64,000 nucleotides of DNA, taken from assembly GCF_017348835.2 (NCBI RefSeq), contig NZ_CP071375.1; one strand, given 5' to 3'. The notes beneath the pieces were generated by a model. It searched no databases and was not told the DNA's origin. It worked only from the letters and a program-made list of their open reading frames with translations. This DNA comes from Escherichia coli. GTDB lineage: Bacteria; Pseudomonadota; Gammaproteobacteria; Enterobacterales; Enterobacteriaceae. Numbering within the stretch: position 1 is the stretch's first letter; each line of letters begins with the position of its first letter. Shown here piece by piece: positions 1,490-43,078 of the stretch. The position numbers and the translations under genes are program-made.

Positions 1490-2542
1490 GTGAACATATA
1501 TATCGGGTGGCTTTTCAAATTAATCCCTTTGATTATGGGCTTAATTTGTATCGCTTTAGGTGGCTTTGTGCTGGAAAGTTCAGGGCAAAGCGAGTATTTC
1601 GTCGCGGGTCATGTGCTGATTTCTCTGGCAGCCATATGCCTGGCATTATTCACTACCGCATTTATTATCATTTCGCAGCTCACGCGCGGCGTTAATACGT
1701 TTTACAATACATTGTTCCCCATTATTGGCTATGCGGGGTCAATTATCACCATGATATGGGGTTGGGCACTGTTAGCAGGCAATGATGTGATGGCAGACGA
1801 GTTTGTCGCCGGCCATGTTATTTTCGGCGTTGGTATGATTGCCGCCTGTGTATCGACGGTGGCAGCATCATCCGGTCACTTTCTGCTCATTCCCAAAAAT
1901 GCAGCGGGGAGCAAGAGCGATGGAACGCCGGTACAGGCTTATTCTTCATTAATCGGTAATTGCCTCATTGCCGTTCCCGTTTTACTCACCCTGCTCGGTT
2001 TCATTTGGTCTATTACGCTGTTACGTAGTGCTGACATAACTCCGCATTATGTCGCGGGTCACGTATTGCTTGGGTTAACCGCAATCTGTGCCTGTCTAAT
2101 TGGCCTTGTTGCCACAATTGTCCATCAAACACGTAATACGTTTTCAACTAAAGAACACTGGCTGTGGTGTTATTGGGTTATTTTTCTCGGCTCAGTCACG
2201 GTGCTGCAGGGGATATACGTCTTAGTCAGTTCCGATGCAAGCGCCCGACTGGCTCCCGGTATTATCCTCATTTGCTTGGGAATGATCTGTTACAGCATAT
2301 TCTCAAAAGTCTGGCTACTGGCACTGGTCTGGAGACGTACCTGTTCGTTAGCCAACAGAATACCGATGATACCGGTATTTACCTGTCTGTTTTGCCTTTT
2401 CCTGGCATCGTTTCTTGCGGAAATGGCGCAGACCGACATGGGATATTTTATTCCTTCGCGGGTTTTGGTCGGTTTGGGAGCGGTATGCTTTACGTTGTTC
2501 TCAATCGTTTCAATATTAGAAGCGGGTTCTGCTAAAAAATAA
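1490..2542 (+). CDS. yhiM: polytopic inner-membrane protein YhiM
   Basis: Taken from ORF 1391..2542. I place the start at GTG 1490 (GAGGAG lies 7 nt upstream), giving 350 aa beginning (M)NIYIGWLFKLIPLIMGLICIALGG, which I recognise as E. coli YhiM. The protein is very hydrophobic with a repeated xVAGHV motif. Confidence 0.9.
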   Translation: MNIYIGWLFKLIPLIMGLICIALGGFVLESSGQSEYFVAGHVLISLAAICLALFTTAFIIISQLTRGVNTFYNTLFPIIGYAGSIITMIWGWALLAGNDVMADEFVAGHVIFGVGMIAACVSTVAASSGHFLLIPKNAAGSKSDGTPVQAYSSLIGNCLIAVPVLLTLLGFIWSITLLRSADITPHYVAGHVLLGLTAICACLIGLVATIVHQTRNTFSTKEHWLWCYWVIFLGSVTVLQGIYVLVSSDASARLAPGIILICLGMICYSIFSKVWLLALVWRRTCSLANRIPMIPVFTCLFCLFLASFLAEMAQTDMGYFIPSRVLVGLGAVCFTLFSIVSILEAGSAKK

Positions 2543-2560
2543 TTGCAACGTACCGGATAA

Positions 2561-2596
2561 AACCAGCGTTGACCATTTGCGTAACGCTGGTTTTTC
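2561..2596 (+). terminator. rho-independent terminator after yhiM
   Basis: AACCAGCGTT (2561-2570) pairs with AACGCTGGTT (2583-2592) and is followed by TTTTCTC. Confidence 0.7.
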
Positions 2597-2857
2597 TCAG
2601 GTATCATGAAATGATGCAGCATTAATGCATAGTGGTTAAGGATAAAAAAACAACAAAGTTACTGTCTTTTTCAGCCTGTTCATATTTTATAAAGATCTGG
2701 CCACTGGGTGAGTTTTCAATCACCTTTCCTTCCACCTTATATTAAGCCTGGAGGGTTTCAGTTCACGGGCTCATTAGAAAATAATCACAAGATAGCCACT
2801 ATCAAAATTAGCTCATTTTTAATGCGGCTCTAATAATTTTCATCTTTAGGTAACAGG

Positions 2858-4060
2858 TCAGGACGACTTCGCTGCAATCAAATCCTGCGCACAAGCCCAT
2901 GCACTCGACCACGCCCACTGGAAGTTATAGCCCCCCAGCCAGCCGGTGACGTCCATCACTTCGCCGATGAAGTACAGCCCAGGCACTTTGCGCGCTTCCA
3001 TCGTCCGTGAAGAGAGTTCGTTGGTGTCCACGCCGCCGAGCGTCACTTCGGCAGTGCGATAGCCTTCAGTGCCGTTGGGTTGTACGCGCCAGTCGGTCAA
3101 TGTGCTAATCAGTGCCTGTTGGTCACGCACGTTGAGCTGTTTTAGCGAAACATCCGGGATTTGCCCGAGTTGCTGTAAGCGTTCAACCAACCGCTTCGGT
3201 AGATGAACCGCCAGTGTGTTTTTCAGGCTCTGATTCGGATGTGCGTTACGCTGCTCATTCAGGAAGGTTTCGAGGTCCACATCCGGTAGCAGATTGATAC
3301 TGACAAATTCACCCGGTTGCCAGTAGCTGGAAATCTGCAACACCGCCGGTCCAGATAAGCCGCGGTGGGTGAAGAGTAAGTTCTCTCGGAAAACGGTGCC
3401 GTTTTCAGCGGTAATCACGGAAAGCACCGCCACGCCCGCCAGCACCTGTAACTCTTCGAGCAACGGTTTATGCAGAGTGAATGGCACCAGACCCGCGCGG
3501 GTCGGCAGCACGTTGAGACCAAATTGTTCGGCAATCTTATAACCAAACGGCGACGCGCCCAGCCCCGGCATTGACAGCCCACCGGTCGCGATGACCAGCT
3601 TTTCGCAACCGACAGTCATGCCGTTCAGTTCAAGCGTGAAGCCTGTATCATCCTTCTCCACGCTCAGCACTTCGCTACGCAATCTGAAGGTCACATTGCC
3701 CTTCTCGCACTCATCCACCAGCATGTCGACAATCTGCTGCGCGGAGTCATCGCAGAAGAGTTGTCCTAACGTTTTCTCGTGCCAGGCGATGCCGTGTTTA
3801 TTGACCAGATCAATGAAATCCCACTGGGTAAAACGCGCAAGTGCAGACTTACAAAAATGCGGATTCTGGCTCAGATAAGCGCCCGGTTCGACATAAAGGT
3901 TGGTAAAGTTGCAGCGCCCACCGCCAGACATGAGGATTTTGCGCCCTGGTTTTTTACCATTATCGATCAGCAGAACCCGGCGTCCTGCCTGACCTGCCAG
4001 CGCAGAACAGAACATACCCGCCGCACCAGCGCCTATAATAATGGCATCAAACCTTTCCAC
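2858..4060 (-). CDS. yhiN: FAD/NAD(P)-binding flavoprotein YhiN (HI0933-like family)
   Basis: A 400-aa ORF with an N-terminal Rossmann motif DAIIIGAGAAGMFCS. The sequence and position match E. coli YhiN. Confidence 0.92.
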   Translation of the reverse strand: MERFDAIIIGAGAAGMFCSALAGQAGRRVLLIDNGKKPGRKILMSGGGRCNFTNLYVEPGAYLSQNPHFCKSALARFTQWDFIDLVNKHGIAWHEKTLGQLFCDDSAQQIVDMLVDECEKGNVTFRLRSEVLSVEKDDTGFTLELNGMTVGCEKLVIATGGLSMPGLGASPFGYKIAEQFGLNVLPTRAGLVPFTLHKPLLEELQVLAGVAVLSVITAENGTVFRENLLFTHRGLSGPAVLQISSYWQPGEFVSINLLPDVDLETFLNEQRNAHPNQSLKNTLAVHLPKRLVERLQQLGQIPDVSLKQLNVRDQQALISTLTDWRVQPNGTEGYRTAEVTLGGVDTNELSSRTMEARKVPGLYFIGEVMDVTGWLGGYNFQWAWSSAWACAQDLIAAKSS

Positions 4061-9790: not shown

Positions 9791-11833
9791 TCAGCCCTTA
9801 ATGCCGTAATGCTCCAGCATCGCATCCAGCTGCGGTTCACGACCACGGAAGCGTTTGAACAGATCCATCGGCTCTTCTGAACCGCCACGGCTCAGAATGT
9901 TGTCGAGGAACGACTGCCCGGTTTCACGGTTGAAAATGCCCTCTTCCTCAAAGCGCGAGAAAGCATCTGCCGCCAGCACATCGGCCCACAGGTAGCTGTA
10001 GTAACCTGCGGCATAACCACCGGCGAAAATATGGCTGAAAGCGTGCGGGAAACGGCCCCAGGATGGAGACGGTACTACGGCAACCAGTTTCTTGATTTCT
10101 GCCAGAGTTTCGAGGATTTTCGCTCCCTGATCCGGGCGGAACTCGGCATGGAGGCGGAAATCGAACAGGCCGAACTCCAGCTGGCGCAGAATAAACAGCG
10201 CCGCCTGGTAGTTCTTCGCTGCCAGCATTTTATCCAGCAACTCTTTCGGCAGCGGTTCGCCGGTTTCATAGTGACCGGAGATAAACGCCAGCGCCTCCGG
10301 CTCCCAGCACCAGTTTTCCATAAACTGGCTCGGCAGTTCGACCGCATCCCACGGCACCCCGCTGATACCAGACACACCAGCGGTTTCAATGCGGGTAAGC
10401 ATATGATGCAGGCCATGACCGAACTCATGGAACAGAGTGATCACTTCGTCGTGAGTGAACAGCGCCGGTTTACCATTCACCGGGCGGTTGAAGTTACAGG
10501 TCAAATACGCGACCGGTTTTTGCAGCGAACCGTCGGCTTTACGCATCTGGCCTACGCAGTCATCCATCCACGCCCCGCCGCGCTTGTTTTCACGGGCATA
10601 CAGGTCGAGGTAGAAGCTACCGCGCAGTTCGTTGTTCTCGTCATACAGTTCGAAGAAACGTACATCCGGATGCCAGACATCAACATCTTTACGCTCTTTA
10701 GCGGTGATGCCGTAAATACGTTTCACCACTTCAAACAGGCCGTTAACCGCTTTGTTTTCCGGGAAGTACGGACGCAGCTGTTCGTCACTGATGCTGTAGA
10801 GGTGCTGTTTTTGTTTTTCGCTGTAGTACGCGATATCCCACGGCTGCAACTCATCGACGCCAAATTCGGCTTTGGCGAAGGAACGCAGTTGTGCCAGCTC
10901 TTTTTCGCCTTGCGGACGTGCGCGTTTTGCCAGATCGGTTAAGAAATCAAGCACCTGCTGCGGGTTTTCTGCCATTTTAGTGGCAAGGGATTTAAAGGCG
11001 TAGTTTTCAAAGCCCAGCAGTTGCGCCAGTTCGTGACGCAGCGCGAGGATCTCTTCCATCACCTTGCTGTTGTCCCACTTACCGGCGTTCGGACCTTGAT
11101 CGGAAGCGCGAGTGCTGTAAGCACGATACATCTCTTCGCGCAGAGCCTGGTTGTCGCAATAGGTCATTACCGGCAGGTAGCTTGGGATATCCAGCGTCAG
11201 CAAATAACCTTCCAGCTCTTTCGCTTCGGCCTGGGCTTTTGCCGCAGCCAGCGCGCTTTCTGGCATCCCCGCCAGCTCCGCTTCGTCGGTAACGAGTTTG
11301 GTCCAGCCCATTGTCGCATCGAGGACGTTGTTGCTGTACTGGTTTCCCAGCTCGGAAAGACGAGTGGCAATCTCACCGTAGCGTTGCTGTTTCTCTTTTG
11401 GCAGACCGATGCCAGAGAGTTCAAAGTCGCGCAGTGCGTTATCAACCGCTTTCTTCTGCGCCGTGTTCAGCGTGGCGTAATGATCGCCATCGCGCAGGTC
11501 GCGATACGCTTTATACAGCCCTTCATGTTGCCCTACCCAGGTGCTGTATTCCGACAGCAGCGGCAGGGTTTGCTCGTAGGCTTCACGCAGTTCCGGGCTA
11601 TTTTTCACCGAGTTCAGGTGGCTGACCGGGGAGAAGATACGCCCCAACACATCGTCCACTTCCGCCAGCGGCTGGCAGAGATTTTCCCAGGTGTACGGTG
11701 CCCCTTGCGCTACTACGCGCTCCACATTTTCCCGGCAGTCGTTCAGCGCCTGAGTCACGGCTGGAACGACATGTTCCGGGAGAATTTTAGAAAACGGAGG
11801 CAATTCAAAGGGAGTCAGTAACGGATTCGTCAT
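9791..11833 (-). CDS. prlC: oligopeptidase A (M3 zinc metallopeptidase)
   Basis: Taken from ORF 9791..11872. The ATG at 11833 gives 680 aa beginning [17 protein letters not shown]. The HEFGH zinc motif is present. Recognised as PrlC/OpdA. Confidence 0.95.
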
Positions 11834-12035
11834 TAGCGCAGTCCTGGTTAAAGAGGTTAAAGAAGCGCTCAACAGGCGCTTTACATAATGTTTGTAGCAT
11901 GGGGTTAAGTGTAGTGAATTTCAATGAGAAACGTTACGCTTTCGCGGCGGCGGCCTCTTTTCGGTATACTGTCCTGATAGGCTTTTGTGCGCCCCGAATA
12001 CGGGCCGATTTTTACTTACCGGAACACCTTTACCC

Positions 12036-12878
12036 ATGCTCAGTTATCGCCACAGCTTTCACGCTGGCAACCACGCCGACGTCCTTAAACATACCGTTCA
12101 GAGCCTGATCATCGAGTCGCTGAAAGAGAAAGATAAACCGTTTCTCTATCTCGACACCCACGCAGGGGCCGGGCGTTATCAGTTAGGCAGCGAACATGCC
12201 GAGCGTACCGGCGAATATCTCGAAGGTATCGCCCGTATCTGGCAGCAGGACGATTTGCCCGCAGAACTGGAGGCGTACATCAATGTGGTAAAACACTTCA
12301 ACCGTAGCGGTCAGTTGCGTTACTACCCCGGTTCGCCGTTGATTGCTCGCCAGCTACTGCGCGAACAAGACAGCCTGCAACTGACCGAACTGCACCCGAG
12401 CGATTACCCGTTGCTGCGTTCTGAATTTCAGAAAGATAGCCGTGCGCGCGTTGAAAAAGCCGACGGTTTCCAGCAGCTTAAGGCCAAACTGCCGCCGGTT
12501 TCCCGCCGTGGTTTAATCCTTATCGACCCGCCGTATGAAATGAAAACCGACTATCAAGCGGTGGTCAGCGGGATAGCAGAAGGTTACAAACGTTTCGCCA
12601 CTGGTACATACGCACTGTGGTATCCGGTGGTGCTGCGTCAGCAAATTAAGCGCATGATCCACGATCTGGAAGCGACCGGTATTCGCAAAATTCTGCAAAT
12701 TGAACTGGCGGTACTGCCAGACAGCGATCGCCGTGGCATGACCGCTTCCGGCATGATTGTGATTAACCCGCCGTGGAAGCTGGAACAGCAGATGAATAAC
12801 GTGCTGCCATGGCTGCACAGCAAACTGGTTCCGGCAGGTACCGGGCACGCCACCGTAAGCTGGATCGTGCCGGAGTAA
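12036..12878 (+). CDS. rlmJ: 23S rRNA m6A2030 methyltransferase RlmJ
   Basis: Taken from ORF 11985..12878. The ATG at 12036 gives 280 aa beginning MLSYRHSFHAGNHADVLKH, with the DPPY catalytic motif (LILIDPPYE). Recognised as YhiR/RlmJ. Confidence 0.92.
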   Translation: MLSYRHSFHAGNHADVLKHTVQSLIIESLKEKDKPFLYLDTHAGAGRYQLGSEHAERTGEYLEGIARIWQQDDLPAELEAYINVVKHFNRSGQLRYYPGSPLIARQLLREQDSLQLTELHPSDYPLLRSEFQKDSRARVEKADGFQQLKAKLPPVSRRGLILIDPPYEMKTDYQAVVSGIAEGYKRFATGTYALWYPVVLRQQIKRMIHDLEATGIRKILQIELAVLPDSDRRGMTASGMIVINPPWKLEQQMNNVLPWLHSKLVPAGTGHATVSWIVPE

Positions 12879-12949
12879 TTGCAGCCATCGCTGGCACCTA
12901 TTACGTCTCGCGCTACAATCGCGGTAATCAACGATAAGGACACTCTGTC

Positions 12950-14302
12950 ATGACTAAACACTATGATTACATCGCCATCGGCGGCGGCAGCGGCGGTATC
13001 GCCTCCATCAACCGCGCGGCTATGTACGGCCAGAAATGCGCGCTGATTGAAGCCAAAGAGCTGGGCGGCACCTGCGTGAATGTTGGCTGCGTGCCGAAAA
13101 AAGTGATGTGGCACGCGGCGCAAATCCGTGAAGCGATCCATATGTACGGCCCGGATTATGGTTTTGATACCACTATCAATAAATTCAACTGGGAAACGTT
13201 GATCGCCAGCCGTACCGCCTATATCGACCGTATTCATACTTCCTATGAAAACGTGCTCGGTAAAAATAACGTTGATGTAATCAAAGGCTTTGCCCGCTTC
13301 GTTGATGCCAAAACGCTGGAGGTAAACGGCGAAACCATCACGGCCGATCATATTCTGATCGCCACAGGCGGTCGCCCGAGCCACCCGGATATTCCGGGCG
13401 TGGAATACGGTATTGATTCCGATGGTTTCTTTGCCCTTCCTGCTTTGCCAGAGCGCGTGGCGGTTGTTGGTGCGGGTTACATCGCCGTTGAACTGGCGGG
13501 CGTGATTAACGGCCTCGGCGCGAAAACGCATCTGTTTGTGCGTAAACATGCGCCGCTGCGCAGCTTCGACCCGATGATCTCTGAAACGCTGGTCGAAGTG
13601 ATGAACGCCGAAGGCCCGCAGTTGCACACCAACGCCATCCCGAAAGCGGTAGTGAAAAATGCCGATGGTAGCCTGACGCTGGAGCTGGAAGATGGTCGCG
13701 GTGAAACGGTGGATTGCCTGATTTGGGCGATTGGTCGCGAGCCTGCCAATGACAACATCAACCTCGAAGCCGCTGGCGTTAAAACCAACGAAAAAGGCTA
13801 TATCGTCGTCGATAAATATCAAAACACCAACGTTGAAGGTATTTACGCAGTGGGTGATAACACGGGTGCAGTGGAACTGACACCGGTAGCAGTTGCAGCG
13901 GGTCGCCGTCTCTCTGAACGCCTGTTTAATAACAAGCCGGATGAGCATCTGGATTACAGCAACATTCCGACCGTGGTCTTCAGCCATCCGCCGATTGGTA
14001 CTGTTGGTTTAACGGAACCGCAGGCGCGCGAGCAGTACGGCGACGATCAGGTGAAAGTGTATAAATCCTCTTTCACCGCGATGTATACCGCCGTCACCAC
14101 TCACCGCCAGCCGTGCCGCATGAAGCTGGTATGCGTTGGACCGGAAGAGAAGATTGTCGGTATTCACGGCATTGGCTTTGGTATGGACGAAATGTTGCAG
14201 GGCTTCGCGGTGGCGCTGAAGATGGGTGCAACCAAAAAAGACTTCGACAATACCGTCGCCATTCACCCAACGGCGGCAGAAGAGTTCGTGACAATGCGTT
14301 AA
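12950..14302 (+). CDS. gor: glutathione reductase
   Basis: A 450-aa ORF with the FAD motif IGGGSGG and the redox-active disulfide [13 protein letters not shown]. Recognised as Gor. Confidence 0.97.
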
Positions 14303-14308
14303 ATGTTA

Positions 14309-14339
14309 AAGGGCTAAGAGTAGTGTGCTCTTAGCCCTT
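14309..14339. terminator. hairpin shared by convergent gor and dinQ
   Basis: AAGGGCTAAGAG-TAGTGTG-CTCTTAGCCCTT forms a 12-bp perfect stem between the gor stop (14302) and the dinQ stop (14356). Confidence 0.75.
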
Positions 14340-14355
14340 AATTACGTTTCCGCTA

Positions 14356-14439
14356 TCAGTTCAGAAGCTGAAGCAGAAAGCGGATCAGTTCCAGCAGCGC
14401 AATTAACGCCCCAAGAACGATGATTGCTTTATCAATCAC
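14356..14439 (-). CDS. dinQ: DinQ, SOS-inducible 27-aa single-TM toxic peptide (type I toxin)
   Basis: It is too short for the ORF track. Reverse-strand translation from GTG (complement of 14437-14439) gives (M)IDKAIIVLGALIALLELIRFLLQLLN*, which I recognise as DinQ. A LexA box lies upstream and the agr repeats lie nearby. Confidence 0.85.
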   Translation of the reverse strand: MIDKAIIVLGALIALLELIRFLLQLLN

Positions 14440-14632
14440 CCGTTTTCTCCATGCGATGGAGTGAGAATGCATCCGCTTACTCATCCACTGCCTGTCACGG
14501 CGCATGTCTCATTGTTAGATAAGAACTCTCTCACTCCGGCCAGAGCATCAGTTAACGGCACCACCCGTACTTCTGACCAGGACTTTGAAAGCGTTTATGC
14601 GCATTACCAGAGTGAAAATGCCTCAGAGCTAA

Positions 14633-14648
14633 CTGGATAATCATACAG
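14633..14648. promoter_or_regulatory. LexA (SOS) box of the dinQ promoter
   Basis: CTGGATAATCATACAG fits CTG-N10-CAG. The 20-mer AACTGGATAATCATACAGTA matches the consensus TACTGTATATATATACAGTA at about 15 of 20 positions. A TATGAT -10-like hexamer on the minus strand overlaps it. Confidence 0.75.
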
Positions 14649-14677
14649 TACATTCAGGTTATAAAACCAGCATGTCC

Positions 14678-15773
14678 TGTGTAAGTTCACAGAGATATTG
14701 CAATTGCCTCCGGATAAGTAAGGGGAGATTGCACTATGCAAATGCAGCATCTGATGGTTGGCTATCCTAAGTACTACCAAACGGCCGATTATGCGTTGAG
14801 GCTTTCAGTGATGGCTGATATAGCAACAATGAGAATGAAGGCTCTGCACTTCTGGGATAAACACGGTATTTCTGCAGCTTCTGAAGCCTTTGGCGTGTCC
14901 TGCCGCACGCTTTACTGGTGGCGTCAGTTACTGAACAAGGAAGGACCTGAGGGGCTAATCCCGCACAGTAAGGCACCTCTGGTGCGACGAAAAAAACACT
15001 GGCATCCCGATGTGCTGAAAGAGATTCGACGCCTCAGGACAGAGCTGCCGAACCTCGGTAAAGAGCAGATTTTTGTTCGCCTGAAGCCCTGGTGCGAACA
15101 GCGCTATCTGGCCTGTCCGAGTGTTTCCACCATCGGCAGAATGATCGCTGCCGCACATGATAAAATGCGGATGATACCTGTGCGTCTGGGATCGCGGGGG
15201 AAGGCACTGCTTGTCAAAAAGCGGTCTGCCAAACCCCGCAGGCCAAAGCACTACCGCCCGGTAAAGACAGGTGAGCTCATTGGGATGGACGCCATTGAGC
15301 TCAGAATGGGCGAACTGCGTCGCTATGTCATCACCATGATCGACGAATGCAGCAATTACGCGCTGGCGCTGGCTGTGCCGTCACTCAACAGTGATATCGT
15401 CAATCACTTCTTCAGCCGCGCAGCCCGGTTGTTCCCGGTCGGTATCAGCCAGATAATCACAGATAACGGAAAAGAGTTCCTGGGAAACTTCGACAAAACG
15501 CTGCAGGAAGCCGCTATCAAACACCTCTGGACCTATCCCTACACGCCAAAAATGAACGCTATCTGTGAACGTTTTAACCGGACGTTAAGAGAGCAGTTTA
15601 TTGAATTTAATGAGATTTTACTCTTTGAAGATCTGGCGCTATTTAACCAGAAGCTGGCGGAATATCTGGTGCTGTATAACAGCAAAAGACCCCACAAGGC
15701 GCTCGCACTAATGACGCCCGTGGAATATATTTTAAAAGAGAATAAAAATTGCAATATGTGGTGGACCCATACA
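14678..15773 (+). mobile_element. insertion sequence with single-ORF IS481-like architecture (about 1.1 kb)
   Basis: It has imperfect terminal inverted repeats. The left end is TGTGTAAGTTCACAGAGATATTGCAATT, and the right end reverse-complemented is TGTATGGGTCCACCACATATTGCAATT. The termini are TGT...ACA. A flanking direct repeat TGTCC lies at 14673-14677 and 15774-15778. The element contains one DDE transposase ORF. The exact ends are uncertain by 2-3 nt. Confidence 0.75.
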
Positions 15774-15818
15774 TGTCCTTGCAATAGTTTCAGTATGGTA
15801 TTAGCATTGATGCGTTAG
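14736..15818 (+). CDS. DDE (rve/integrase-core) transposase with N-terminal HTH
   Basis: A 360-aa ORF with AAGGGGA 9 nt upstream of the ATG and an HTH-like segment FGVSCRTLYWWRQ. The catalytic triad candidates are GMDAIE, ITDNGKEF and, 35 residues later, CERFNRTLRE. The ORF runs through the right IR and stops 45 nt outside the element. Confidence 0.85.
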   Translation: MQMQHLMVGYPKYYQTADYALRLSVMADIATMRMKALHFWDKHGISAASEAFGVSCRTLYWWRQLLNKEGPEGLIPHSKAPLVRRKKHWHPDVLKEIRRLRTELPNLGKEQIFVRLKPWCEQRYLACPSVSTIGRMIAAAHDKMRMIPVRLGSRGKALLVKKRSAKPRRPKHYRPVKTGELIGMDAIELRMGELRRYVITMIDECSNYALALAVPSLNSDIVNHFFSRAARLFPVGISQIITDNGKEFLGNFDKTLQEAAIKHLWTYPYTPKMNAICERFNRTLREQFIEFNEILLFEDLALFNQKLAEYLVLYNSKRPHKALALMTPVEYILKENKNCNMWWTHTCPCNSFSMVLALMR

Positions 15819-15897
15819 ATGATGGCATTCTCACTCCAGCCAGAGCCACCAACTCTGGGCTGCAAAGTAAAAAACCGACGCAAAGTCGGTTTTTTTA
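15814..15897 (+). ncRNA. agrA: AgrA small RNA (dinQ-related repeat, weak antisense match)
   Basis: The promoter has TTGCAA (15779-15784), a 17-nt spacer and TAGCAT (15802-15807). The body begins GTTAGATGATGGCATTCTCACTCCAGCCAGAGC and ends in the terminator AAAAACCGACGCAAAGTCGGTTTTTTT. It is a paralogue of the agrB copy. The ends are estimated. Confidence 0.7.
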
Positions 15898-16044
15898 CAT
15901 CCGGATTCGGACAAGGCTTAATATGACGATGACCCAGTGAAAGTATATAAATCGTCACTGCGATATATACCGAAGTGCCCCCTCCGCCAGCTGAAGAAAT
16001 CGCTAATTCTTGCAATGTTAGCCACTGGCTAATAGTATTGAGCT

Positions 16045-16127
16045 GTTAGATAAGAGCTCTCTCACTCCAGCCAGAGCCACCAACTCAGGGCTGGAAAGTA
16101 AAAAACCGACGCAAAGTCGGTTTTTTT
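16045..16127 (+). ncRNA. agrB: AgrB small RNA (trans-antisense antitoxin of dinQ)
   Basis: The promoter has TTGCAA (16010-16015), a 17-nt spacer and TAGTAT (16033-16038). Positions 16045-16077 match the dinQ-region copy 14514-14546 at 31 of 33 positions, making it complementary to the minus-strand dinQ mRNA. It has the same terminator as agrA. The ends are estimated. Confidence 0.75.
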
Positions 16128-16200
16128 ACGTCCTGATTCAGACCTCCTTTCAAATGAATAGCCAACTCAAAATTCACACCTATTACCTTCCTCTGCACCT

Positions 16201-16241
16201 ACGCATTCGTTAAACCATATATGTTTTTGACTTATCCGCTT
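16201..16241 (+). promoter_or_regulatory. remnant of the ars promoter with the ArsR operator (-35 retained, downstream part deleted)
   Basis: ACGCATTCGTTAAACCATATATGTTTTTGACTTATCCGCTT closely resembles the ars operator and promoter as I recall it from R773 and chromosomal ars operons (..CATTCGTTAAGTCATATATGTTTTTGACTTATCCGCTT..). The similarity stops at about 16241. Confidence 0.6.
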
Positions 16242-16292
16242 TGGTTTGTAACGCTGGCTGCGCTGGCGCTACGTCTCTCTTTCACTTTGTAA
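16242..16292 (+). pseudogene. arsB: arsB 3'-terminal remnant (last 16 codons plus stop)
   Basis: TGG TTT GTA ACG CTG GCT GCG CTG GCG CTA CGT CTC TCT TTC ACT TTG TAA encodes WFVTLAALALRLSFTL*, a hydrophobic C-terminus ending 12 nt before the arsC ATG, as arsB does in intact operons. No arsR or arsB body is present upstream. Confidence 0.6.
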
Positions 16293-16304
16293 TGAGATAC
16301 TGAT

Positions 16305-16730
16305 ATGAGCAACATTACCATTTATCACAACCCAGCCTGCGGCACATCGCGTAATACGCTGGAGATGATCCGCAACAGCGGTACAGAACCGACCATTATC
16401 CATTATCTGGAAACACCACCAACGCGCGATGAACTGGTAAAACTCATTGCCGATATGGGGATTACCGTACGCGCGCTGCTGCGTAAAAACGTCGAGCCGT
16501 ATGAGGAACTGGGCCTTGCGGAAGATAAATTTACTGACGAGCGGTTAATCGACTTTATGCTTCAGCACCCGATTCTGATTAACCGTCCGATTGTGGTGAC
16601 GCCGCTGGGAACTCGCCTATGCCGCCCCTCGGAAGTGGTGCTGGAAATTCTGCCAGATGCGCAAAAAGGCGCGTTCTCCAAGGAAGATGGCGAGAAAGTG
16701 GTTGATGAAGCGGGTAAGCGGTTGAAATAA
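16305..16730 (+). CDS. arsC: arsenate reductase (glutaredoxin-coupled ArsC family)
   Basis: A 141-aa ORF, MSNITIYHNPACGTSRNTLEMIRNSG..., with the catalytic Cys12 context HNPACGTSRN. Recognised as E. coli ArsC. Confidence 0.95.
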   Translation: MSNITIYHNPACGTSRNTLEMIRNSGTEPTIIHYLETPPTRDELVKLIADMGITVRALLRKNVEPYEELGLAEDKFTDERLIDFMLQHPILINRPIVVTPLGTRLCRPSEVVLEILPDAQKGAFSKEDGEKVVDEAGKRLK

Positions 16731-16779
16731 AGCGGCTATATCCCCCCCACAGGTTGTTAGAAAAGTGCGCTTTATTTAT

Positions 16780-16880
16780 GTCGGATGCGACGCTGGCGCG
16801 TCTTATCCGACCTACAAGGTTATGAAAATTCGATGAATTGTATGTTATTTGTAGGCCTGACAGGCGTAGCGCATCAGGCG
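16780..16880. repeat. REP/BIME element
   Basis: GTCGGATGCGACGCTGGCGCGTCTTATCCGACCTAC and GTAGGCCTGACAGGCGTAGCGCATCAGGCG are inverted REP units downstream of arsC. Confidence 0.9.
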
Positions 16881-17356
16881 ATTTTGCTATTTACACATTA
16901 CTCCCTGCGTGAGATTCCAATTATCGCGTCCAGCATGGTGTATCAGTGATCTGCTTAGTGATCAGCGATACAGTGCAGCAGTTTAAAGACGTACTGGATT
17001 ATGATTTATCAGTGCTTTACACAACAAATTATTCAATAATTATAAGATACCTTAACCCATTTTATTATTACACATCTAAAACATCACAAAAATATCATTT
17101 CACACACTATCGGAGAACATCATAACTTTTTAAAATGAGCGCTTTTTGATAGTTGTTAACGTTTTCTTTTACGATACTATCAATGCCCTTTTTTATACAC
17201 AAATATTACCGGGTGGAGATAAAAGGGAAGTCAAAGGTAATTATATCAGGAAGATATGACGCATGATATTTATTGTGCGTAGAAGAAAATCCATTCCTGC
17301 TCTAATTATCCAATTTAAAAATCTTAGCATAAAACAGATAATGAATAAGGAATGTT

Positions 17357-18472
17357 ATGTCAATTGACTTTACCCCAGGTGTGATAAATACATATCACGG
17401 CGATATTTATAACCGCACAACAGATACCGACAATGTTAAAACACCAGACACACCGATGTGGCCTTGTGATAATCGGGAAGAACAACAACCCATTAATTCC
17501 ACATTCTCTGGAGAAGGATACAACCCTGAACAATATGATTTAGCGCGGCAACACCTCCCACAAATTTATGCGTGCCGCACGAACACCAAATATACAGATG
17601 CAGACTACTCAAAAGTTGTGGCTCAACTTGTAAGTCTTATTACTAACATTGAATCGATAAGTTCGACACCACTTACGCGGCAGGCACAGGAAATACTTAA
17701 TCAAATTAATAACATTAGATACGAAAAGAACAAAAGTGCTGAATGTCGAATCATTGTTGTCGCTAATCCTAAACCCGACAAGGCAATCATAACTAAAATT
17801 AGCGTAGAAGAGGGAATACCAGTAAGATTCAGTGTCCAAACCATGTTTTCAGATACTAATTTTATTGCTGAACAACGAGCTGACTTACCGACTAATATAA
17901 AAGATATTCAAATCCTGTATCAAAAAATGACGAAGTTATATATTGAACACAGTGAAAATAAAAACAGGATGAAAGTCTTTGCCGGAACCAACTTTATTGA
18001 TTTCAATATGACAGGACAGAACCTGTCCGGGTTCGTTCTAACTTTGTCAAGGTTTTATTTCGAAGATCTACTTAATATAAATTTCACTGACGCAAATTTA
18101 GGTGACACTATTTTTTCACATAAAGAACACCCTACCCCCAAATTATATAAAGACGAACAATATCTTGACAAACAAATCGAAGGTTTATTTTCAACATTAT
18201 TAACCATTAATGACAACTTTTTACGAGCAAAAGCGGAAATTGCTTCGACAATAATTAAATTCTTAGAGGCCAGGATAACCAATCTTTCATACAATGACAT
18301 ATTAAAATATCAGCAAGAATTCCAAAAACAATGTTATAAGCAAGTTAAAGCCTTTACGACACTCTCCCGATACAATAAAATTCAAACATGGGCAGAAATG
18401 TCTGAATATCAATTCGAAGTATTTCAATACGAGACGCTTAACCCAAAAAAATGTCACGTACGCCTTATTTAA
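17357..18472 (+). CDS. yhiS: uncharacterised YhiS-like protein with a central pentapeptide-repeat segment
   Basis: A 371-aa ORF in a markedly AT-rich stretch with AAGGAA 6 nt upstream of the ATG. It occupies the arsC-slp position that yhiS holds in K-12. Residues 211-255 show nine consecutive 5-residue units with a central F/L/M. The symbol is assigned by synteny. Confidence 0.65.
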
Positions 18473-18826
18473 AGAGGCCACTTCCTAATGAAAAAGATAT
18501 ATATTATGGGGTGGAAATAGAAATACCATCTGGCAAAAGAATTCGCTTATCAAATCATTATCAGAATATAATACCATAATATTGATTATTAGCACTTTAT
18601 AATTATTGAATAAAAATATATTTTATGTAATTTTAAAACAAAGGATTATATTATGGGGCGATGGATACTCATGTCACGCCCCAAAATCAATGGAATTGAA
18701 CTAAACAGAAGGGATATAAACATCAGACAGGTTTACGTTACTATCAGGCATATCGCCTCAGAATCAGATGAAAACTATAAAGAAATATCTATTATGGTTT
18801 TAATATTTGTTGATAAGGATAGTAAC

Positions 18827-19393
18827 ATGAACATGACAAAAGGTGCACTCATCCTCAGCCTTTCATTTTTGCTTGCCGCATGTAGTTCAATTCCGCAAAA
18901 TATCAAAGGCAATAACCAACCTGATATTCAAAAAAGTTTTGTTGCTGTTCATAACCAGCCGGGGTTATATGTTGGTCAACAAGCGCGCTTTGGCGGGAAG
19001 GTTATCAACGTTATCAATGGCAAAACGGATACGTTGTTAGAAATCGCTGTATTACCGTTGGATAGCTATGCGAAACCTGATATTGAAGCCAACTATCAGG
19101 GCCGACTGCTCGCCAGACAAAGCGGCTTCCTTGATCCAGTGAACTATCGTAATCACTTTGTTACCATCCTCGGTACCATTCAGGGTGAACAACCCGGCTT
19201 TATCAATAAAGTCCCGTATAACTTCCTGGAAGTGAATATGCAGGGCATCCAGGTGTGGCATTTGAGAGAAGTGGTTAATACCACCTATAACCTGTGGGAT
19301 TACGGCTATGGTGCATTCTGGCCGGAACCGGGCTGGGGTGCGCCTTACTACACCAATGCGGTGAGTCAGGTAACACCTGAGCTGGTCAAATAA
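18827..19393 (+). CDS. slp: outer-membrane lipoprotein Slp (starvation/acid-induced)
   Basis: The ORF track starts at 18653. The ATG at 18827 gives 188 aa beginning MNMTKGALILSLSFLLAACSS (lipobox LAAC). Recognised as Slp. Confidence 0.93.
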   Translation: MNMTKGALILSLSFLLAACSSIPQNIKGNNQPDIQKSFVAVHNQPGLYVGQQARFGGKVINVINGKTDTLLEIAVLPLDSYAKPDIEANYQGRLLARQSGFLDPVNYRNHFVTILGTIQGEQPGFINKVPYNFLEVNMQGIQVWHLREVVNTTYNLWDYGYGAFWPEPGWGAPYYTNAVSQVTPELVK

Positions 19394-19548
19394 CACCACC
19401 GAAAGATGCAGATGCTTTCTCAGCATCTGCATCGTGCATTACATCAAATTAATACACAGCAAGCTAACTATTATTACTATAAGCCCTGTCCTGTTAATTA
19501 CCTTTGGCAAACTGATTATAAAGTTAATGTCCGCACCAGGAGTCGGTT

Positions 19549-20079
19549 ATGTTTCTTATAATTACCAGGGATACGATGTTCTTCACCGCGATGAAAAACA
19601 TTCTGAGTAAAGGTAATGTCGTTCATATACAGAACGAAGAAGAGATCGACGTAATGTTGCATCAGAATGCCTTCGTCATTATTGATACATTAATGAATAA
19701 TGTATTTCATTCTAATTTTCTCACTCAAATTGAACGATTAAAACCTGTCCATGTCATTATTTTCTCCCCCTTTAATATTAAACGCTGCCTGGGGAAAGTG
19801 CCGGTGACCTTTGTTCCGCGGACTATCACTATCATTGATTTTGTCGCACTCATCAATGGCAGTTACTGCTCTGTGCCTGAAGCGAATGTGTCACTTTCGC
19901 GCAAGCAACATCAGGTTCTGAGCTGCATTGCGAATCAAATGACAACGGAAGATATTCTGGAGAAACTGAAAATATCGCTAAAAACGTTCTACTGCCATAA
20001 ACACAATATCATGATGATCCTCAATCTTAAGCGGATCAATGAGCTGGTACGCCATCAGCATATTGATTATCTGGTATGA
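19549..20079 (+). CDS. dctR: LuxR-family transcriptional regulator DctR (YhiF)
   Basis: A 176-aa ORF with a C-terminal LuxR HTH (LSRKQHQVLSCIANQMTTEDILEKLKISLKTFYCHKHNIM). Recognised as YhiF/DctR. Confidence 0.9.
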   Translation: MFLIITRDTMFFTAMKNILSKGNVVHIQNEEEIDVMLHQNAFVIIDTLMNNVFHSNFLTQIERLKPVHVIIFSPFNIKRCLGKVPVTFVPRTITIIDFVALINGSYCSVPEANVSLSRKQHQVLSCIANQMTTEDILEKLKISLKTFYCHKHNIMMILNLKRINELVRHQHIDYLV

Positions 20080-20139
20080 ACGATTGATCAATATAAAGAG
20101 GCCCAGCAATAAATAGCCAGACCTCCCGTTAATTATACG

Positions 20140-21168
20140 TTATGCAGCAACGCCTTCCGGTATCAGCGAAGCAATTTGCTTACGCCATTGCGCTTGCTCC
20201 TGTTCGCCTTCTGTACGTTGACCATAAAGTTGCGCTATCTGCGTACCATCATGGGCAAACAATTCCAGACTGGTTACGTAGCCATCGCTGGTCGGTTTAC
20301 GGGTAACCCAGGCTTCAGCAATGCTCTCTTCTAATAGATGAAGAGTAAACGTCGGGTTGAAAATATTCAGCCAACCTTTCATTGGCACCACTTTTTCTAC
20401 CACACCGGTGAAAATCTGTACGCAGCCACGGTTGCCAACAAACACCATGATTTCATTACCATCCTGCTGTGCAGATTCAAGAATTTGCGCCAACGCACTG
20501 TTGGATACTTTGCAGGCCAAATCGTCCGCCACCAGATTGAACGCCTGTTGGCGCGTCAGGTTGTGGCGCTTGAGCAACGTAAAAAACTGATGAACGTCGG
20601 TCATCGCCCGCCACTCTTGCTCGACCACACTGGCATCGACTCGCGTTTGAACAACTGGCGCATCAACGGCTTTTAACTCAAGCGGCGTATTCTCATCGGT
20701 GATAAACCGTGCCAGAAGCTCACTCCATGCCGCCATATCGGTATTGTCGGTGGCATAAACTTTTAGTAATGCATCGCCCTGATGATCAAAGAACTGAATA
20801 CTTTGGCGTTCGCCACGAGCCGTGTTTTCTTTGATGTGGAAAACACTGGCCCATTGATTGAGAAACAGACGTAAATCCAGCGCGCGTGGATTGAGGATCA
20901 ATCCGGCATGTCCGTTCAAATGCTGGTTTGTGAACGCACCAACTTGCTCATGGACTGCATATTCATTACGGCAAATACATTTGGTCTCGCCAACACTTTC
21001 GAGCGCCGCCAGAATTTCACGGATATCGCCGCGCATCCGCCACGCATCGTGCGTGACGCGTGCAAATGCCAGTTCTGCTTCTCTAATATTCATTAACCCT
21101 GCGATGTCACGCGCGTACTTTCCGGGATTTTGTTCTTTTAACTCAAGCCAGCGTGTGTAGTGGTTCAT
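20140..21168 (-). CDS. chuS: cytoplasmic heme-degrading / heme-trafficking protein ChuS
   Basis: A 342-aa ORF, MNHYTRWLELKEQNPGKYARDIAGLMNIREAELAFARV..., recognised as ChuS/ShuS. Confidence 0.93.
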   Translation of the reverse strand: MNHYTRWLELKEQNPGKYARDIAGLMNIREAELAFARVTHDAWRMRGDIREILAALESVGETKCICRNEYAVHEQVGAFTNQHLNGHAGLILNPRALDLRLFLNQWASVFHIKENTARGERQSIQFFDHQGDALLKVYATDNTDMAAWSELLARFITDENTPLELKAVDAPVVQTRVDASVVEQEWRAMTDVHQFFTLLKRHNLTRQQAFNLVADDLACKVSNSALAQILESAQQDGNEIMVFVGNRGCVQIFTGVVEKVVPMKGWLNIFNPTFTLHLLEESIAEAWVTRKPTSDGYVTSLELFAHDGTQIAQLYGQRTEGEQEQAQWRKQIASLIPEGVAA

Positions 21169-41680: not shown

Positions 41681-43078
41681 TTATTGTTTATCCTGCATAT
41701 ACGGCGTGTACACCCCGTTCAGACTGTGCAGGAAAGCTACGATATCATCCACATCCTCCTGCGGCAGCTCTTTGCCTACCTGATAGCGCAACATCAGTTT
41801 CACCGCCCCGTCCAGCGTCGGCACGTCACCGCGATGGAAGTACGGTGCCGTTAAAGCAACGTTACGTAAACCGGGTACTTTCTGACGCAATTTATCACGC
41901 TCTTCTTTAGTCACATTCATACGACCAATATCCGCCGCCGTAATTTCCCCAAAGTTAAAGTCTTTTTTCAGCCCCAACGGTTCAAAGGAACGTCCGCCGA
42001 GAATAATTCCACCATGACAAGTTGCACATTTATTATCTTTAAATAATTGATAGCCTTTTTTCTGTTGCGCCGTCAGCGCATTCTCATCTCCACGCAACCA
42101 TTTATCAAATGGGGAATCCGGCGTAATTAATGTTTTCTCAAATTCAGCAATGGCATCAGTAATATTTTCGCCACTGAAACCTTGCGGATAGACGTCGAGG
42201 AACTGCGCTTTAAGCTGCGGATCTTTTTCCAGCTTAGCAATAATTTCGTCCCAGGATTTTGACGCCATTTCAATCGGGTTCAACGGCGGTCCACCAGCCT
42301 GATCCTGCAATGTTGCCGCACGACCATCCCAGAACTGCTCAACGTTAAATACTGAATTAAATACCGTCGGCGCGTTAATCGGCCCAACTGCGCCACCAAC
42401 ACCAATCGATGTTTTTCTGCCATCGACGCCCCCCGCATTCAACGCATGGCAATGAGCGCATGAAATGGTGTTATCTGCCGATAAACGGGGATCGTGATAC
42501 AGCGCAAAGCCCAACGCCACTTTTTGCGCATCGGTAGGCAGTTTTTGCGGGATGGGCTGCACCGGTTCATTGCGATGCTCCGGAGCAGTATCATTACTGG
42601 CGTAATATTCTGCGCGCTGTTTTGCAATCCAGGCCAGTATTTCCGCCCGCTCTTCATCACTCACCTTACCCGCCCAGTGAAGCGCGGTATAACGCGTTGG
42701 CGGCATAGTTTCATACTGCATCACCCATTCAATCTTATTCAGATCGCTTTGCGAAACGGGTTTATCAGCCAGCAGAGCAGCACGCACGGCCTCGAGGTTA
42801 AAAGATTTATATCCAAGCTTAATGTCGTAATCCATCAACTGTTTCGCGCCAGGAATATAATAATAGGCGGGTAATTCTGCCGAAGGCGTGTGGCAATAGT
42901 CGCATCCTTTTTCGCGGAGAAAGCCTAAAACCTTATTATTTTCACTGACAGCAGATGCCTGAACATCGGCCTGTTTACTGCGTTTATTATCGTGGTACCA
43001 CACATAACCAGATAACCCTAAATAGCAAATCGCGACGCCAGCCAGGCCGATCGCGGTAATACGTGAGACCATTTTCAT
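41681..43078 (-). CDS. yhjA: membrane-anchored tri-heme cytochrome c peroxidase YhjA (Ccp)
   Basis: A 465-aa ORF with an N-terminal TM anchor and three CxxCH motifs (CDYCH, CAHCH, CATCH). Recognised as YhjA. Confidence 0.93.
   Translation of the reverse strand: MKMVSRITAIGLAGVAICYLGLSGYVWYHDNKRSKQADVQASAVSENNKVLGFLREKGCDYCHTPSAELPAYYYIPGAKQLMDYDIKLGYKSFNLEAVRAALLADKPVSQSDLNKIEWVMQYETMPPTRYTALHWAGKVSDEERAEILAWIAKQRAEYYASNDTAPEHRNEPVQPIPQKLPTDAQKVALGFALYHDPRLSADNTISCAHCHALNAGGVDGRKTSIGVGGAVGPINAPTVFNSVFNVEQFWDGRAATLQDQAGGPPLNPIEMASKSWDEIIAKLEKDPQLKAQFLDVYPQGFSGENITDAIAEFEKTLITPDSPFDKWLRGDENALTAQQKKGYQLFKDNKCATCHGGIILGGRSFEPLGLKKDFNFGEITAADIGRMNVTKEERDKLRQKVPGLRNVALTAPYFHRGDVPTLDGAVKLMLRYQVGKELPQEDVDDIVAFLHSLNGVYTPYMQDKQ

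Follow-up and report, generated by a model that had tools for sequence, protein, structure and literature searches.

An arsC gene that stands in an E. coli chromosome with neither arsR nor arsB beside it raises two questions: how this arrangement came about, and whether the remaining gene is decaying or is maintained for another reason. The case treated here lies in a stretch of DNA of 64,000 nucleotides (the window), whose ars locus is an arsRB deletion with arsC left in place. The window is a segment of E. coli chromosome with 99.99% identity to the pig isolate PE164 in the parts compared (11820-20799 and 16520-64000; 1 mismatch and 2 gap openings across 47.5 kb). Its gene order is prlC-rlmJ-gor-dinQ, an IS481-family element, agrA, agrB, arsC, a yhiS-like ORF, slp, dctR, the chu heme genes and the gad/hde acid island.

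Related to this, B2 isolates with arsC alone between gor and slp have been reported by Sütterlin et al. 2018 (AAC 62:e00209-18, PMC5923176), and the absence of arsR and arsB was explained there as loss, not gain. In the same study phylogroup E isolates had either the B1 or the B2 ars gene order, some of them being thus arsC-only; every isolate devoid of arsRB showed an arsenite MIC below 128 mg/L; plasmid-borne ars operons were present in none of the isolates; ST69 strains carried arsRDABC; and arsC was found in every isolate, the authors asking if it has another function (PMC5923176). In a study from Bangladesh, ST131 lacked arsR and arsB and had the lowest As(III) MIC (PMC9731454). The window agrees with the published arsC-only allele, arsC being the only ars gene between gor/dinQ/agrAB and yhiS/slp, with the same junction. 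The arsRB deletion is an already published, common allele, and its detection in an earlier note, made on this DNA from the sequence alone, is a correct rediscovery. The present analysis adds a base-exact map of the blunt junction, arguments for a single origin, the lack of a second arsB on the chromosomes of the nearest relatives, and evidence that the orphan arsC is not decaying. On sequence evidence it is very probable that the window carries this widespread, already described delta-arsRB allele, produced by a single old deletion, in which arsC is maintained by purifying selection and probably expressed at a low level.

The deletion junction and the remnants of arsR and arsB

The window was aligned to the K-12 locus (arsR 2353-2706, arsB 2760-4049, arsC 4062-4487 in L003, the reference used here) and to the intact operons of O157:H7, strain 142 and strain 64.1. 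Its left side is collinear with the region upstream of arsR as far as K-12 position 2316, and its right side matches arsB from K-12 position 4001, corresponding to window position 16244, where BLAST independently begins its arsB match. Exactly 1684 bp are missing with respect to K-12: the -10 element, arsR, the arsR-arsB spacer, arsB codons 1-413 and two nucleotides of codon 414. The ends are joined bluntly, and neither of them shows a repeat, microhomology or a recognisable site. The loss is regarded as clean because strains HH45 and HH97 (CCGCTTCG/GTTTGTGAC) carry the exact join of K-12 2316 to 4001, free of filler. Next to the junction the window has two point changes, T16242 in place of the C and A16250 in place of the G of intact operons; a filler of 2 nt or a GCT microhomology, both considered for the junction, are ruled out by the clean blunt join in HH45.

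The tail aligns to the 3' end of arsB and the upstream segment to the arsR promoter, the two alignments on which the deletion model of the earlier note depended, and the comparison with intact arsRBC operons maps the junction and yields no microhomology. The positions given in that note are all correct: ACGCATTCG...CCGCTT at 16201-16241, TTGACT at 16227-16232, AACGCT at 16250-16255, the tail with its stop at 16242-16292 and arsC at 16305-16730. The fusion of the ars operator and -35 to the end of arsB is likewise real according to the K-12 alignment; however, only 15 native codons (16245-16289) plus the stop are retained instead of the 16 codons proposed. The first apparent codon of the tail, TGG, is a hybrid: two of its bases, T16242 and G16243, derive from the promoter side, and the third, G16244, is what is left of arsB codon 414, namely its final base. 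The features of the locus are collected in Table 1.

Table 1. Features of the ars locus and of the adjoining small RNA genes (positions of the window).
Feature	Position	Strand	Basis
agrA, second AgrB-family copy	15815-15898		Rfam, 100.3 bits
agrB small RNA, antisense regulator of dinQ	16046-16129	+	Rfam RF02891 AgrB, 108.1 bits (gathering score 40)
arsR upstream remnant, kept to the middle of the promoter spacer	16130-16243	+	collinear with K-12 (L003) to 2316 and with O157, 142 and 64.1
ArsR operator-like motif CCAT-N7-TTTG	16215-16229	+	sequence inspection
-35 hexamer TTGACT	16227-16232	+	sequence inspection
Deletion junction, K-12 2316 joined to 4001	16243/16244	+	base-by-base alignment; unmutated form in HH45
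Candidate replacement -10, TGT-AACGCT	16247-16255	+	within the arsB relic
arsB 3' relic: last base of codon 414, codons 415-429 (FVTLAALALRLSFTL), stop TAA at 16290-16292	16244-16292	+	tblastn, alignment
Native arsB-arsC spacer with the arsC ribosome-binding region (TGAGATACTGAT)	16293-16304	+	identical to K-12
arsC, glutaredoxin-dependent arsenate reductase, 141 aa, full length, intact	16305-16730	+	NCBIfam and residues

The arsB relic is non-functional. A tblastn search of the 64-kb window with ArsB matches this tail only (residues 415-429 of 429), and the same search with ArsR gives no match (best E = 0.035, a spurious match of 26 aa), the arsR position lying inside the 1684-bp gap. The alignment and tblastn of the window therefore bear out the claim that this locus has lost its repressor, its native -10 and its pump. 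No complete arsRBC operon is present, since arsR, arsB and the full ArsR-controlled promoter are all lacking. The arsB-arsC spacer has a single variable position among eight junction-bearing strains (16299, C to A, in three of them). A 23-codon ORF runs through operator and relic (ATG at 16221 to the stop at 16292); it lacks a ribosome-binding site, is placed upstream of the one plausible promoter and is therefore judged a chance ORF.

Compared with K-12 arsRBC, the window shares the locus gor-dinQ-agrAB-ars-yhiS-slp, the upstream region through the -35, the 3' end of arsB and the spacer, but it lacks the 1684 bp and with them the repressor and the pump. The upstream neighbour of the ars locus is agrB, whose 3' end consists of a hairpin followed by a T-run. 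A scan of 14000-17500 against Rfam gave only the two AgrB-family small RNAs and a sub-threshold naRNA4 match, with no RNA element within 16201-16304, and folding of 16085-16320 (z = -1.4) revealed nothing apart from the agrB terminator and one small hairpin within the arsB relic.

Distribution and origin of the allele

Two junction-spanning probes of 191 and 74 nt, each required to be at least 80% covered, were used to survey 5426 complete E. coli genomes. The identical junction was found in 1111 of them, about a fifth, so that the configuration, whose possible lineage specificity the earlier note wanted surveyed, is a widespread allele and one already published (PMC5923176). A K-12 arsRB probe was covered to at least 80% in 4122 of the 5426 genomes, which were taken as having intact arsRB. 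About 1050 carriers have the strongly diverged phylogroup B2 form, for example ST131, UPEC 536 and APEC O2:K1:H7; Nissle 1917 retains, of arsRB, the arsB tail only. The other carriers, about 60, belong to other backgrounds and are less diverged; among them are many O145:H28 STEC, a Combat11I9-like group and the group of the window itself, with isolates from pig, calf, baboon, otter and water. The string CCGCTTTGGTTTGTAAC at the junction is common to the window, 536, ST131, APEC O2:K1 and O145:H28 and could serve as a simple lineage marker; a scan of one genome per bacterial species gave 0 matches to the junction pattern.

The window and the B2 arsC-only locus are alike in the endpoints of the deletion, the two changes adjacent to the junction, the order gor-arsC-slp and the chu/shu heme genes downstream. 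Nevertheless, the window does not belong to B2: the distance of its gor and arsC from those of B2 is as large as that of the K-12 genes (dS 0.11-0.19), it has an IS481-family element upstream of agrA, unlike the B2 locus, and its relic and promoter remnant are far less mutated, the tail differing from the intact alleles of K-12 and O157 at 1 of 49 positions whereas that of B2 strain 536 differs from K-12 at 8 of 49.

Both T16242 and A16250 are found in 1109 of the 1111 carriers, and in all sampled carriers except HH45. The relic mutations are nested: HH45 has none; the window and PapRG have 2 (counting T16242); Combat11I9, O145:H28 and 23S01245 have 4; ST131 follows; and then come 536 and APEC with 8 of 49 relative to K-12. 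A single origin is supported because the changes next to the junction are nearly universal and the relic mutations nested, and the pattern fits one ancestral deletion followed by descent and recombination. According to this scheme, an old illegitimate deletion of 1684 bp, blunt and free of homology, fused the arsR operator and the -35 to the 15 terminal codons of arsB; the allele became fixed in phylogroup B2 and is found in a few other lineages, including the PE164-like one, which it would have reached by descent or by homologous recombination.

The presence of the allele in B2, in O145:H28 and in other backgrounds could also be due to recurrence, if a site-directed mechanism deleted the same endpoints more than once in unrelated phylogroups. 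HH45 and HH97 would agree with this, as they have the same endpoints with neither point change and a K-12-like left flank (gor dS 0.003 against K-12). However, the junction is blunt and lacks any repeat, microhomology or recognisable site, 1109 of 1111 carriers have both point changes with relic mutations nested as by descent, and HH45 is visibly recombinant across the locus; recurrence is thus considered extremely improbable. The single ancestral deletion is consequently the reading followed below.

The two exceptional strains deserve a description of their own. In HH45 (L013 3560-3660) and HH97 the bases to the left and to the right of the junction are unmutated; the left flank of both strains is K-12-like, and the right one, with its degenerate chu cluster, is not. 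Their state represents either the ancestral junction or conversion that reached the border of the heterology from each side.

Promoter remnant, probable arsC expression and a possible arsenite exit

The operator, -35 and -10 of the ars promoter are assigned here on the basis of the ars promoter literature and of inspection of the sequence, the -10 of K-12 being a presumed one. In the window this ArsR-controlled promoter is incomplete: the operator-like motif and the -35 are present, but the deletion has removed the native -10 (GACACT in K-12) and put the arsB-derived AACGCT in its place, as the earlier note had stated for the retained TTGACT and for the hexamer at the expected -10 position. 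The text of PMC9134189 contains no printed definition of the K-12 ars promoter hexamers. The CCAT of the operator, TCAT in K-12, was rejected as a sign of decay, since the intact operons of O157, 142 and 64.1 also have CCAT.

A hybrid promoter candidate is formed by TTGACT, a 17-bp spacer ending in TGT, which resembles the TG motif of extended -10 elements, and a weak AACGCT that keeps A2 and T6. All sampled alleles agree in the -35 hexamer and in the TGT-AAC of the candidate -10. In B2 the core of this hybrid promoter has diverged by 4-6.5% versus 13-17% in its flanks, a difference that is not significant (p = 0.06-0.12). A scan of 15750-16900 for consensus promoters and terminators gave no matches, but it says little because its rule of at least 4 of 6 positions per hexamer would probably also miss the presumed -10 of K-12, GACACT (3 of 6). 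A literature search on the expression of orphan arsC (UPEC, CFT073, Nissle) returned papers on the paralogue YffB or unrelated papers, and no transcript data. From the sequence, orphan arsC would probably be transcribed constitutively and at a low level, with no induction by arsenic, from the hybrid promoter, by read-through from agrB, or both.

The chromosomal arsenite pump, reported missing by the earlier note, is indeed represented in the window by the tail only. A chimeric probe made of window 14300-16243 and a 651-nt core of K-12 arsB found 6 places on the chromosome of PE164 and 9 on that of F2_81, and a control probe devoid of arsB also found 6 and 9; the extra places are presumably other IS copies. 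At blastn sensitivity there is thus no detectable second ArsB-type gene on the chromosomes of these two near-identical relatives. The search for a second ars operon suggested in the earlier note is answered to that extent, for ArsB-type genes on these two chromosomes.

The loss of the pump could be compensated by another ars operon or arsenite exporter (on a plasmid, on an island or of Acr3 type), so that arsC would belong to a complete pathway. Queries with the arsB tail and arsC do find 2-3 places in some carriers, such as Combat11I9 and 2018-05-2CC, and the arsRDABC of the ST69 strains is a precedent (PMC5923176). Nevertheless, queries containing arsC find a single place in PE164 and F2_81, none is gained by adding the arsB core, and both the absence of plasmid-borne ars operons and the low MIC of all isolates devoid of arsRB (PMC5923176) speak against compensation, which is considered very unlikely. 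The preferred reading remains that of a cell devoid of ArsB efflux of arsenite and antimonite and of ArsR control.

Aquaglyceroporins are permeable to arsenite in both directions. Arsenite produced by ArsC could therefore leave passively, down its gradient, through the aquaglyceroporin GlpF, by analogy with ArsC and AqpS of S. meliloti, where AqpS replaces ArsB and lets internally made arsenite out (PMC6138428). The statement of the earlier note that arsenite would have no dedicated exit holds as far as ArsB is concerned, but an exit of this kind is still conceivable. The two systems are alike in having ArsC with neither an ArsB nor an Acr3 pump (PMC6138428); they differ in that the S. meliloti channel is encoded in the operon and regulated by ArsR, whereas the putative GlpF route of delta-arsRB E. 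coli would be unlinked and not regulated by arsenic. ArsC with GlpF could operate in the manner of the S. meliloti system, for arsenate only.

Retention of arsC and its genomic surroundings

The sequence assigns the arsC of the window to the glutaredoxin-dependent arsenate reductases of the R773/E. coli type. The protein lies above the curated cut-offs of NF007456 (304.9 bits, cut-off 242, full length 1-141) and TIGR00014 (137 bits, cut-off 106), is 98.6% identical to K-12 ArsC and retains C12, R60, R94 and R107, as well as H8 and S15. Cys12 and the arginine triad Arg60/Arg94/Arg107 are taken to be the catalytic residues, following the literature on R773 ArsC.

Among ten sampled junction-bearing genomes, arsC is full-length in all ten, with nine distinct sequences (that of PE164 equals the window) in at least five allele classes. 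Nei-Gojobori dN/dS between arsC alleles of such genomes is mostly 0.05-0.2 pairwise, and 0.05-0.11 among the more diverged alleles of intact operons; the window and 536 differ by 16 synonymous and 7 nonsynonymous substitutions (omega 0.13). The arsC alleles are mosaic and common to intact and deleted backgrounds (K-12 and Combat11I9, for example, have a dS of 0.04), and for that reason part of the low dN/dS may come from intact operons via recombination. A separate count was made of the changes confined to B2, which very probably postdate the deletion. They affect 5 of 49 relic sites, 5 of about 103 synonymous arsC sites and 5 of about 320 nonsynonymous arsC sites; the relic has thus changed about 6 times faster than the nonsynonymous sites of arsC (Fisher p = 0.005). 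The dN/dS of B2-only arsC changes is about 0.32, with wide uncertainty given 5 nonsynonymous and 5 synonymous changes. Three arsC changes are fixed and specific to B2, two of them nonsynonymous (D78H, R80Q), and three further replacements, T18A, L101Q and L113P, occur within three B2 strains, because of which some relaxation of selection is possible.

It could be argued that the gene is a neutral leftover that has not yet been inactivated, its low dN/dS being inherited from its past in an intact operon and from recombination with arsRBC strains. The mosaic alleles, some of them in deleted strains nearly identical to those of intact strains, would agree with this, as would the replacements in B2 (two of only three fixed changes, and three more within B2) and the failure to detect a strong promoter. 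The intact state of all ten sampled genes, catalytic residues included, tells against it, although the gene is short, and so do the contrast between the 5 of 49 relic sites and the 5 of about 320 nonsynonymous sites (p = 0.005) and the presence of arsC in every isolate of Sütterlin et al. (PMC5923176). A neutral leftover is unlikely. The earlier note had offered decay and maintenance as the two options, and the intact copies, the dN/dS values and the faster change of the relic favour maintenance; on balance, orphan arsC would be under continuing purifying selection, possibly somewhat relaxed.

The question of why arsC stays with no pump is already in the literature and becomes sharper here, because the adjacent arsB relic decays while arsC does not. 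A more specific answer is put forward only tentatively, as one that is possible but doubtful: arsC may have long been kept by selection, in about a fifth of E. coli, for a job independent of ArsB and ArsR. This job could be a pump-free detoxification of arsenate via GlpF, arsenate entering the cell as a phosphate analogue, or that of a glutaredoxin-coupled reductase independent of arsenic; in either case arsC would be driven by the constitutive hybrid promoter made by the deletion (-35 TTGACT and a weak, TG-extended -10), itself conserved. The allele accounts for the arsenite sensitivity of B2 pathogens (ST131, ST73, ST95 and similar) and of some animal-associated lineages. It is relevant to the design of ArsR-based biosensors or to arsenic selection in carrier hosts, its practical value being limited.

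Several features of the surroundings vary between strains. Synonymous divergence is higher in arsC (dS up to 0.25-0.29) than in the neighbouring gor (12950-14302; 0.06-0.19), and alleles are mosaic across phylogroups; the ars/agr/yhiS interval seems to be a hotspot in which old polymorphism and recombination are concentrated. Two AgrB-family copies are present in the window and in K-12, and apparently one in PapRG-06-5 (L007, about 3354-3494), whose alignment collapses the repeat. The IS481-family element (14679-15771; transposase ORF 14736-15818, + strand; NF033577 221 bits, just below the cut-off of 224 bits) has inserted in the dinQ-agrA interval, some 43 nt upstream of agrA, and shows a duplication of 8 bp (CATGTCCT). 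A few other genomes have this site occupied too, including Z1323CEC0015 and O103:H2 FWSEC0007, both with intact arsRB, and a diverged copy (89.7%) adjoins dinQ in the O127:H6 EPEC strain E2348/69. The insertion may alter the expression of agrA and hence the control of the DinQ toxin.

Downstream of arsC, the yhiS-like ORF (17357-18472, + strand) is intact in the window (371 aa, no NCBIfam match) and in O145:H28, and the annotation of O157:H7 E32511 shows no defect, only the start of the ORF lying in the stretch compared. PE164, PapRG, Combat11I9 and 23S01245 have it annotated with a frameshift, HH45 and the three sampled B2 strains have a truncated form, and in K-12 it is split by IS5, so that the gene appears to have decayed repeatedly across E. 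coli. In strains 142 (L004 3357-4098) and 64.1 (L006 3469-4097), whose arsRBC is intact, yhiS is replaced downstream of arsC by a divergent regulator of the ArsR/SmtB family and a permease, which look like a second, uncharacterised metalloregulatory module at the ars locus; a fragment of this regulator is retained in HH45. Finally, at the gadA position a 465-aa ORF (41681-43078, - strand) is open in the window and gadA is annotated as frameshifted in PE164, a difference that may be an assembly indel in either one.
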